Origin: a virus
Taxonomy: Duplodnaviria > Heunggongvirae > Uroviricota > Caudoviricetes
DNA length: 7,811 bases
Virus record (IMG/VR): IMGVR_UViG_2521172734_000004
Location: 1 to 7,811 of that record
Direction: 5' to 3' (one strand)
Part shown: positions 239 to 1,552 of the stretch, piece after piece
How positions within the stretch are numbered: position 1 is the first letter of the stretch
How the letters are laid out: each line of letters opens with the position of its first letter
Made by a program: the position numbers and the translations under genes
Notes under the pieces: generated by a model
Told to the model about the DNA's origin: nothing
What the model saw: the letters and a program-made list of their open reading frames with translations, nothing else
Database searches by the model: none

Positions 239-982
239 ATGACAGAGACAGAATCAGCGATTCTGGCGCACGCCCGGCGATGTACGCCAGCGGAGTCGTG
301 CGGCTTCGTGGTGAGAGCGCCGGAGGGGGAAAGATATTTTCCCTGCGTGAATATTTCCGGTGAGCCGGAGGATTATTTCCGGATGGCTCCGGAGGACTGG
401 CTGCAGGCAGAAATGCAGGGTGAGATTGTGGCGCTGGTCCACAGCCACCCCGGTGGTCTGCCCTGGCTGAGTGAGGCTGACCGGCGGCTGCAGGTGCAGA
501 GTGATTTGCCGTGGTGGCTGGTCTGCCGGGGGACGATTCATAAGTTCCGCTGTGTGCCGCATCTCACCGGGCGGCGCTTTGAGCACGGGGTGACGGACTG
601 TTACACGCTGTTCCGGGATGCTTATCATCTGGCGGGGATTGAGATGCCGAATTTTCATCGCGGGGATGACTGGTGGCGTCACGGTCAGAATCTCTATCTT
701 GACAATATGGAGGCTACTGGTTTTTACCGTGTCGCACTGACAGAGGCGCAGCCGGGCGATGTGCTGCTGTGCTGTTTTGGTTCATCGGTGCCGAATCATG
801 CCGCCATTTACTGTGGTGACGGCGAGCTGCTGCACCATATTCCTGAACAACTGAGCAAACGAGAGAGGTATACCGACAAATGGCAGCGACGCACACACTC
901 CCTCTGGCGTCACCGGGCATGGCGCGCATCTGCCTTTACGGGGATTTACAACGATTTGGTCGCCGCATCGACCTTCGTGTGA
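239..982 (+). CDS. K: Tail tip assembly protein K (JAMM/MPN metalloprotease-like N-domain plus NlpC/P60-like C-domain)
   Basis: ORF-track frame 197..982; I place the start at ATG 239-241 (MTETESAIL...), 5 nt after the L stop. A JAMM motif HSHPGGLPWLSEAD (H-x-H-x7-S-x2-D) is encoded at nt 440-481, with candidate upstream Glu residues. A conserved Cys in VTDCYTLF (nt 599-601) and downstream His residues (NHAAIYCG...LLHHIP) fit an NlpC/P60 fold. The C-terminus ...GIYNDLVAASTFV* resembles lambda K. Start is ambiguous: TTG 197, ATG 239 or ATG 383 (the 199-aa lambda annotation); 239 is preferred because the MPN fold needs the residues upstream of HSH. Confidence 0.88.
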   Translation: MTETESAILAHARRCTPAESCGFVVRAPEGERYFPCVNISGEPEDYFRMAPEDWLQAEMQGEIVALVHSHPGGLPWLSEADRRLQVQSDLPWWLVCRGTIHKFRCVPHLTGRRFEHGVTDCYTLFRDAYHLAGIEMPNFHRGDDWWRHGQNLYLDNMEATGFYRVALTEAQPGDVLLCCFGSSVPNHAAIYCGDGELLHHIPEQLSKRERYTDKWQRRTHSLWRHRAWRASAFTGIYNDLVAASTFV

Positions 983-1552
983 AAACGGGGGCTGAAGCCA
1001 TCCGGGCGACTGGCCACACAGCTCCCGGCGTTTCGTCAGAAACTGAGCGACGGCTGGTATCAGGTACGGATTGCCGGGCGGGACGTCAGCACGTCCGGGT
1101 TAACGGCGCAGTTACATGAGACTCTGCCTGATGGCGCTGTGATTCATATTGTTCCCAGAGTCGCCGGGGCCAAGTCAGGTGGTGTATTCCAGATTGTCCT
1201 GGGGGCAGCCGCCATTGCCGGATCATTCTTTACCGCCGGAGCCACCCTTGCAACATGGGGGGCTGCCATTGGTGCCGGTGGTATGACCGGCATTCTGTTT
1301 TCTCTCGGTGCCAGTATGGTGCTCGGCGGTGTGGCTCAGATGCTGGCACCGAAAGCCAGAACTCCCCGCACACAGACAACGGATAACGGTAAGCAGAACA
1401 CCTATTTCTCGTCACTGGATAACATGGTTGCCCAGGGCAATGTCCTGCCTGTTCTGTACGGTGAAATGCGCGTGGGGTCACGTGTGGCATCTCAGGAGAT
1501 CAGCACGGCAGATGAAGGGGACGGTGGTCAGGTTGTGGTGATTGGTCGATGA
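880..1552 (+). pseudogene. I: Tail tip assembly protein I, disrupted by an apparent +1-nt frameshift (N-terminal 43 codons in frame 1, remainder in frame 2)
   Basis: Frame 1 from ATG 880 gives MAATHTLPLASPGMARICLYGDLQRFGRRIDLRVKTGAEAIRA, then runs into unrelated sequence and stops at 1117-1119. Frame 2 is open from 983 to TGA 1550-1552 and from about 1010 encodes LATQLPAFRQKLSDGWYQVRIAGRDVSTSGLTAQLHETLPDGAVIHIVPRVAGAKSGGVFQIVLGAAAIAG...GGQVVVIGR*, which matches the rest of lambda gpI as I recall it. The span is 673 nt, one more than a 223-codon gene plus stop. The switch point is within about 1003-1012 (gcc atc cgg gcg A ctg gcc). It overlaps the K 3' end by 103 nt in another frame, as in lambda. 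Confidence 0.7.

Follow-up and report, generated by a model that had tools for sequence, protein, structure and literature searches.

Tail assembly gene I of a lambda-like prophage in Escherichia coli DEC15C is encountered in two reading frames instead of one, and this locus raises the question whether the prophage has lost a tail protein by mutation or whether a base has been added to its sequence during sequencing and assembly. In the structure of the lambda tail tip, gpI is a trimer plugging the tube and is resolved from residue 101 onward (PMC11101478). The resolved parts comprise a pair of hydrophobic helices (named H1 and H2), a plug of residues 159–175, and β-strands that pass through gpJ; the domain at the N-terminus is not visible (PMC11101478). 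If a frameshift at codon 44 was true, the full-length product would lose everything that is resolved structurally in gpI. An earlier note on this DNA took as its leading reading that the indel is real and the prophage a tail-defective, cryptic one. The step from loss of gpI to a tail defect would be reasonable with a real base, because a shift at codon 44 removes the structurally resolved part of the protein.

In this study, we compared the locus with lambda, with complete E. coli genomes, and with other, independently assembled copies of this prophage. Judged by these sequence comparisons, the extra base is very likely a sequencing or assembly artefact at the end of a draft contig and not a feature of the organism. 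The underlying gene is the already known lambda I.

Window and source contig

The window, i.e., the whole stretch of 7,811 nt analyzed here, corresponds to bases 3–7813 of contig AIHQ01000013.1 from the 2012 draft assembly GCA_000250535.2 of E. coli DEC15C (O111:H21). The contig opens with the bases "ac", followed by the window, with an exact match from contig base 3 in the pieces compared. According to a published strain table, the WGS prefix AIHQ denotes E. coli DEC15C (O111:H21, phylogroup B1) and AIHR denotes DEC15D (PMC4959244). The contig starts within gene L of a lambda-like prophage inserted beside tRNA-Ser and hyaA, and K begins at contig base 241. Many other draft contigs of the same prophage also begin within tail genes. 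The window contains the distal tail module in the gene order L-K-I-J-lom-stf (Table 1), with I located between K and J and sharing its first 103 nt with the 3′ end of K. By ORF reading, K, J, lom, and stf are open, as the earlier note had described; the broken C-terminus of L had gone unmentioned there.

Table 1. Features of the window (positions in nt, counted from the first base of the window).
Feature	Position	Strand	Remarks
Gene L, 3′ end	1–234	+	In three frames, owing to insertion of T at 15 and of G at 77
Gene K, JAB and NlpC/P60 peptidase, 247 aa	239–982	+	Open; private G>A at 284 (Ala16Thr)
Gene I, N-terminal segment, codons 1–43, frame 1	880–1008	+	43/43 residues identical to lambda gpI
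Extra G, cause of the frameshift	1008	+	Position 1010 of AIHQ01000013.1
Gene I, remainder, codons 44–223 and stop, frame 2	1009–1552	+	177/180 residues identical to lambda gpI 44–223
79-aa ORF, frame 1	880–1119	+	43 gpI residues, then 36 residues out of frame
137-aa ORF from GTG (gpI residues 87–223)	1139–1552	+	Annotated as a gene in the deposited assembly
Gene J, tail tip attachment protein, 1131 aa	1613–5008	+	Intact
lom	5076–5675	+	Open
stf, side tail fibre gene with collagen repeats	5827–7194	+	Open
DUF4376 gene	3′ of stf, runs past the window end		By ORF reading of the window

Two sequence elements outside of gene I were also recorded. Within stf, positions 6754–6923 form a tandem repeat with 3.8 copies of a 45-nt unit and a collagen-like (Gly-X-Y) pattern. 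Among assemblies with an identical J protein, Stf has 455, 485, or 500 aa, the copy number of the repeat changing in frame; it has 467 aa in E. coli 55989 and 497 aa in strain 15A, in neither of which J is identical. These length differences could be due to real repeat variation or to a collapse of repeats in short-read assemblies. Between I and J (1570–1591), a 9-bp GC-rich hairpin, GAAACCGCC-UGCG-GGCGGUUUU, is followed by a T-rich tract and, by its sequence, looks like a terminator within the late operon. The fold of the 60-nt hairpin region has −18.2 kcal/mol with z = −1.9, and the hairpin was not listed by a simple terminator scan.

Gene I in two reading frames

The span 880–1552 comprises 673 nt, i.e., 224 codons plus one base, and gene I spans 672 nt in 80/80 of the phage and E. 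coli matches listed. Thereby, the surplus of one base over an intact 223-codon gene, which had been pointed out before, was confirmed. Frame 1 encodes MAATHT...AEAIRA, identical to residues 1–43 of lambda gpI, and frame 2 continues with LATQLPAFRQ... up to the stop codon at 1550–1552. The comparison with lambda gpI thus bears out the division proposed in the earlier note, with the 43 N-terminal residues in frame 1 and the rest of the protein in frame 2 (identities in Table 1). Its suggestion of a single-base insertion with the switch near 1003–1012 was likewise correct: alignment to 55989 and ten draft assemblies placed the extra base at 1008. It is the bracketed G in GGGC[G]ACTGG and does not extend a homopolymer. 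The site without the extra G reads GGGCACTGG.

Deletion of base 1008 yields a single ORF of 223 codons, the product of which is identical to lambda gpI in 220/223 residues and scores 99.8 bits on PF06805 (Lambda_tail_I; cut-off 23.8) over residues 14–97. The 79-aa ORF alone scores 39.3 bits on the same family, the frameshift cutting the domain (residues 14–97) midway. As deposited, the gene is not a single uninterrupted ORF of about 213–223 codons but is broken between codons 43 and 44.

The start of gene I is annotated in three ways, i.e., at ATG 880 (lambda, 223 aa), at ATG 919 (210 aa, many gene calls), and at GTG 979 (PGAP, 190 aa), the latter overlapping the stop codon of K as GTGA. An alternative start codon sparing the frameshift was considered and rejected; all three starts are located upstream of 1008. 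Due to the extra G, the remainder of I comes to lie in the frame of K, with only the TGA of K (980–982) and nine codons between them.

Comparison with other assemblies and sequence collections

The best-matching complete genome was that of E. coli 55989, in which the prophage adjoins tRNA-Ser and hyaA, with unbroken genes L, K, and I. The extra G is the sole difference from 55989 within 880–1552. In the complete genome of the O111:H21 strain 15A, L, K, and I are also intact at the same tRNA-Ser/hyaA site.

For the detection of independent assemblies of the same prophage, the exact J protein of the window was used. This protein is indexed in 148 blocks of a public assembly collection, and L, K, and I were intact in 10/10 of the places listed (L 232 aa, once called with 212 aa; K 247 aa; I 190 or 210 aa as called). 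Compared with the loci L009 and L011 (GCA_026698525.1 and GCA_026698825.1), the window shows only four differences, namely an additional T at 15, an additional G at 77, the exchange G>A at 284, and the additional G at 1008. The extra G was absent from loci L002–L011, L137, and L138. It was absent from the sister strain DEC15D and 20 other assemblies sharing J or stf, i.e., it is not reproduced in the lineage as would be expected of a pseudogene. In DEC15D (locus L003), which belongs to the same clonal group, L, K, and I are intact and located mid-contig, and none of the four changes is present.

The search of sequence collections gave the same picture. A 41-mer centred on the insertion, designed such that each 28-nt seed contains the extra base, had 0 matches in 5,426 complete E. 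coli genomes, and exact 24–29-mers with the insertion had 0 matches in GTDB species genomes, IMG/VR, and JGI metagenomes. The intact 28-mer, used as positive control, had at least 120 matches in IMG/VR. For the 79-aa frameshift product, no exact match was obtained in a collection of 153 billion genes. The 137-aa ORF product and the Ala16Thr variant of K each have an exact record only on AIHQ01000013.1, and by these two products the source contig of the window was identified. None of the four variants was found in 131 other lambdoid loci; among 133 loci, only the two DEC15C contig pieces carry them. The earlier note had stated that one base fewer in homologues would indicate an assembly error, and one base fewer is what the homologues show.

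Among the complete I genes in the loci fetched, 117/120 are single ORFs of 213–223 codons, and the remaining 3/120 are shortened at other positions, none of them at codon 43/44. In the draft-derived IMG/VR loci L057, L074, and L022, I is cut to 134, 86, and 169 aa, respectively, corresponding to about 2–3% of the I genes sampled. Disruptions of I, real or artefactual, are thus encountered in draft-derived loci.

Private differences near the contig end

The four private differences correspond to contig positions 17, 79, 286, and 1010, and the frameshift G is located 1010 nt from the contig end. The last 6803 nt of the window are identical to L009 and L011. For four uniformly placed differences, the probability that all of them fall within 1008 of 7811 nt is P = 2.8e-4. 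Two of the insertions affect gene L, where dropping T 15 and G 77 restores the lambda-like C-terminus ETDGAVFPGRIMLANTCTWTYRGDECGY...KLSQ in one frame. These extra bases in L are contig-end discrepancies of the type represented by G 1008 in I.

Over contig bases 1–17195, six differences were found in comparison with the closest assembly (L137), four of which are single-base indels and two of which are substitutions. These are the four differences in the window, a homopolymer difference, and one further substitution. The homopolymer is A7 in DEC15C and A8 in every other assembly of the locus; it is located at contig position ~7815, two bases beyond the last base of the window and just downstream of the stop codon of the DUF4376 gene. 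Differences dominated by indels typically point to sequencing error rather than to divergence among close E. coli isolates. The A7/A8 length difference fits an indel-prone sequencing chemistry, and the DEC genome project reportedly used such a chemistry, which we did not count as evidence. Two of the three insertions in the window are not homopolymer extensions, so they do not represent the most typical pyrosequencing error.

These data have to be weighed against a real private frameshift in the DEC15C prophage, which together with the two frameshifts in L would leave the phage without a tail tip and the prophage cryptic. The deposited sequence does contain the frameshift, decay of prophage genes occurs, and I is shortened elsewhere in a few other loci; loss of gpI, which plugs the lambda tail tip as a structural trimer, would plausibly be disabling (PMC11101478). 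True decay, however, would be expected to be scattered over the prophage, mainly in the form of substitutions. Here, all four private changes are found within 1010 nt of the contig end, the adjoining 6.8 kb including J, lom, stf, and the DUF4376 gene match other isolates without a difference, and indels outnumber substitutions by four to two. A real mutation would thus call for three frameshifts and a missense mutation within 1 kb that happens to abut the contig end, and neither DEC15D nor any other assembly in the collections searched carries any of these changes. We consider this alternative unlikely. If it applied, a single prophage in a single strain would have acquired a private inactivating mutation of an ordinary kind.

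With the extra base located some 1 kb from the contig end among other private single-base errors, an artefact appears almost certain. A base-calling or consensus error at a low-quality contig end would have led to the split of I, and the first ~1 kb would contain three spurious single-base insertions (15, 77, and 1008) and one spurious substitution (284). Such errors may have arisen from low coverage or from indel-prone chemistry at the contig end. Most likely, the real DEC15C prophage possesses an ordinary uninterrupted 223-codon gene I and an intact L, as in DEC15D. Of the interpretation given in the earlier note, the alternative of an assembly error is thereby favoured, and its leading reading of a real indel in a cryptic, tail-defective prophage lacks support, the extra base being private, close to a contig end, and absent from DEC15D.

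Multi-copy context of the L-K-I region

The L-K-I region is ~97% identical to lambda. In E. coli genomes, the I region has a median copy number of 2 and a maximum of 7; strain 15A has 4 copies of L-K-I. The error cluster is hence located in the multi-copy part of the prophage beside an assembly breakpoint, where coverage and consensus quality would be expected to be worst.

This context also allows for a chimeric consensus, in which reads from paralogous copies of L-K-I were merged at the repeat boundary, so that the extra base would be due to mis-assembly and not to a base-calling error. The copy numbers in the related strain 15A and in E. coli genomes in general are in line with such an event, and the contig breaks inside of the L-K-I repeat. 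Misaligned paralogous reads, however, would be expected mainly to import known substitutions, and the four variants do not resemble paralogue alleles. As none of them was found in the 131 other lambdoid loci, a chimeric consensus is less likely than a plain base-calling or consensus error, and we assign it only a slim chance.

Improbable readings: programmed frameshifting or a two-piece gpI

If ribosomes shifted by +1 near codon 43/44 in a programmed manner, full-length gpI would be obtained from the sequence as deposited. Geometrically, this would be possible, since both frames are open from 983 to 1116. The arrangement, however, is not conserved, I being in one frame in the 117/120 complete genes and in the 80/80 matches listed, and the k-mer with the insertion was absent from all collections searched. 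Also, reading of positions 995–1020 gave no indication of recoding: on the triplets AUC CGG GCG ACU GGC, neither the Arg nor the Ala tRNA can re-pair in +1, and there is no stop codon, known hungry-codon context, or closely spaced upstream Shine-Dalgarno stimulator. The earlier note had already judged programmed frameshifting unlikely for want of a shifty motif; we agree, as no homologue has the two-frame arrangement, and regard the probability of such an event as practically negligible.

It is scarcely more probable, and in our judgement highly improbable, that the extra G is real and that a working tail tip is formed with gpI in two pieces. In such a case, the 137-aa ORF (residues 87–223) would cover all of the resolved residues; in a variant of this scenario, readthrough of the K TGA would yield a K-I fusion.

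Implications for draft prophage sequences

Taken at face value, the frameshift would lead to the mislabelling of a probably intact lambda-like prophage of DEC15C as tail-defective, and the split genes I and L would enter surveys of prophage decay or recoding as spurious "pseudogenes". The lesson from this locus is that frameshifts in the terminal ~1 kb of a draft contig, especially in multi-copy prophage tail genes, need to be compared with sister assemblies first.

Comparison with known systems

With respect to gene order, the 103-nt overlap with K, and 97% DNA identity, the gene corresponds to lambda gene I encoding gpI (PF06805). It differs from lambda I in being broken after codon 43 by the extra G, a difference that is most likely not biological.

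The likeness to programmed frameshifting, i.e., the −1 frameshift of lambda G/GT or the +1 frameshift of E. coli prfB, is superficial and consists in the homology of one protein being distributed over two overlapping frames and in the location within a tail operon. In contrast to lambda G/GT and prfB, there is no slippery heptamer, no CUU-UGA-type site or stimulator, and no conserved arrangement, and the shift cuts midway through a Pfam domain that all homologues have in one piece.

The locus shares more with the frameshift artefacts found at contig ends of draft bacterial assemblies, namely the location 1010 nt from the end, the cluster of private indels, the change in a homopolymer, and the absence from the sister strain and all other assemblies. 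It departs from them in that simple extension of a homopolymer does not account for two of the three insertions.
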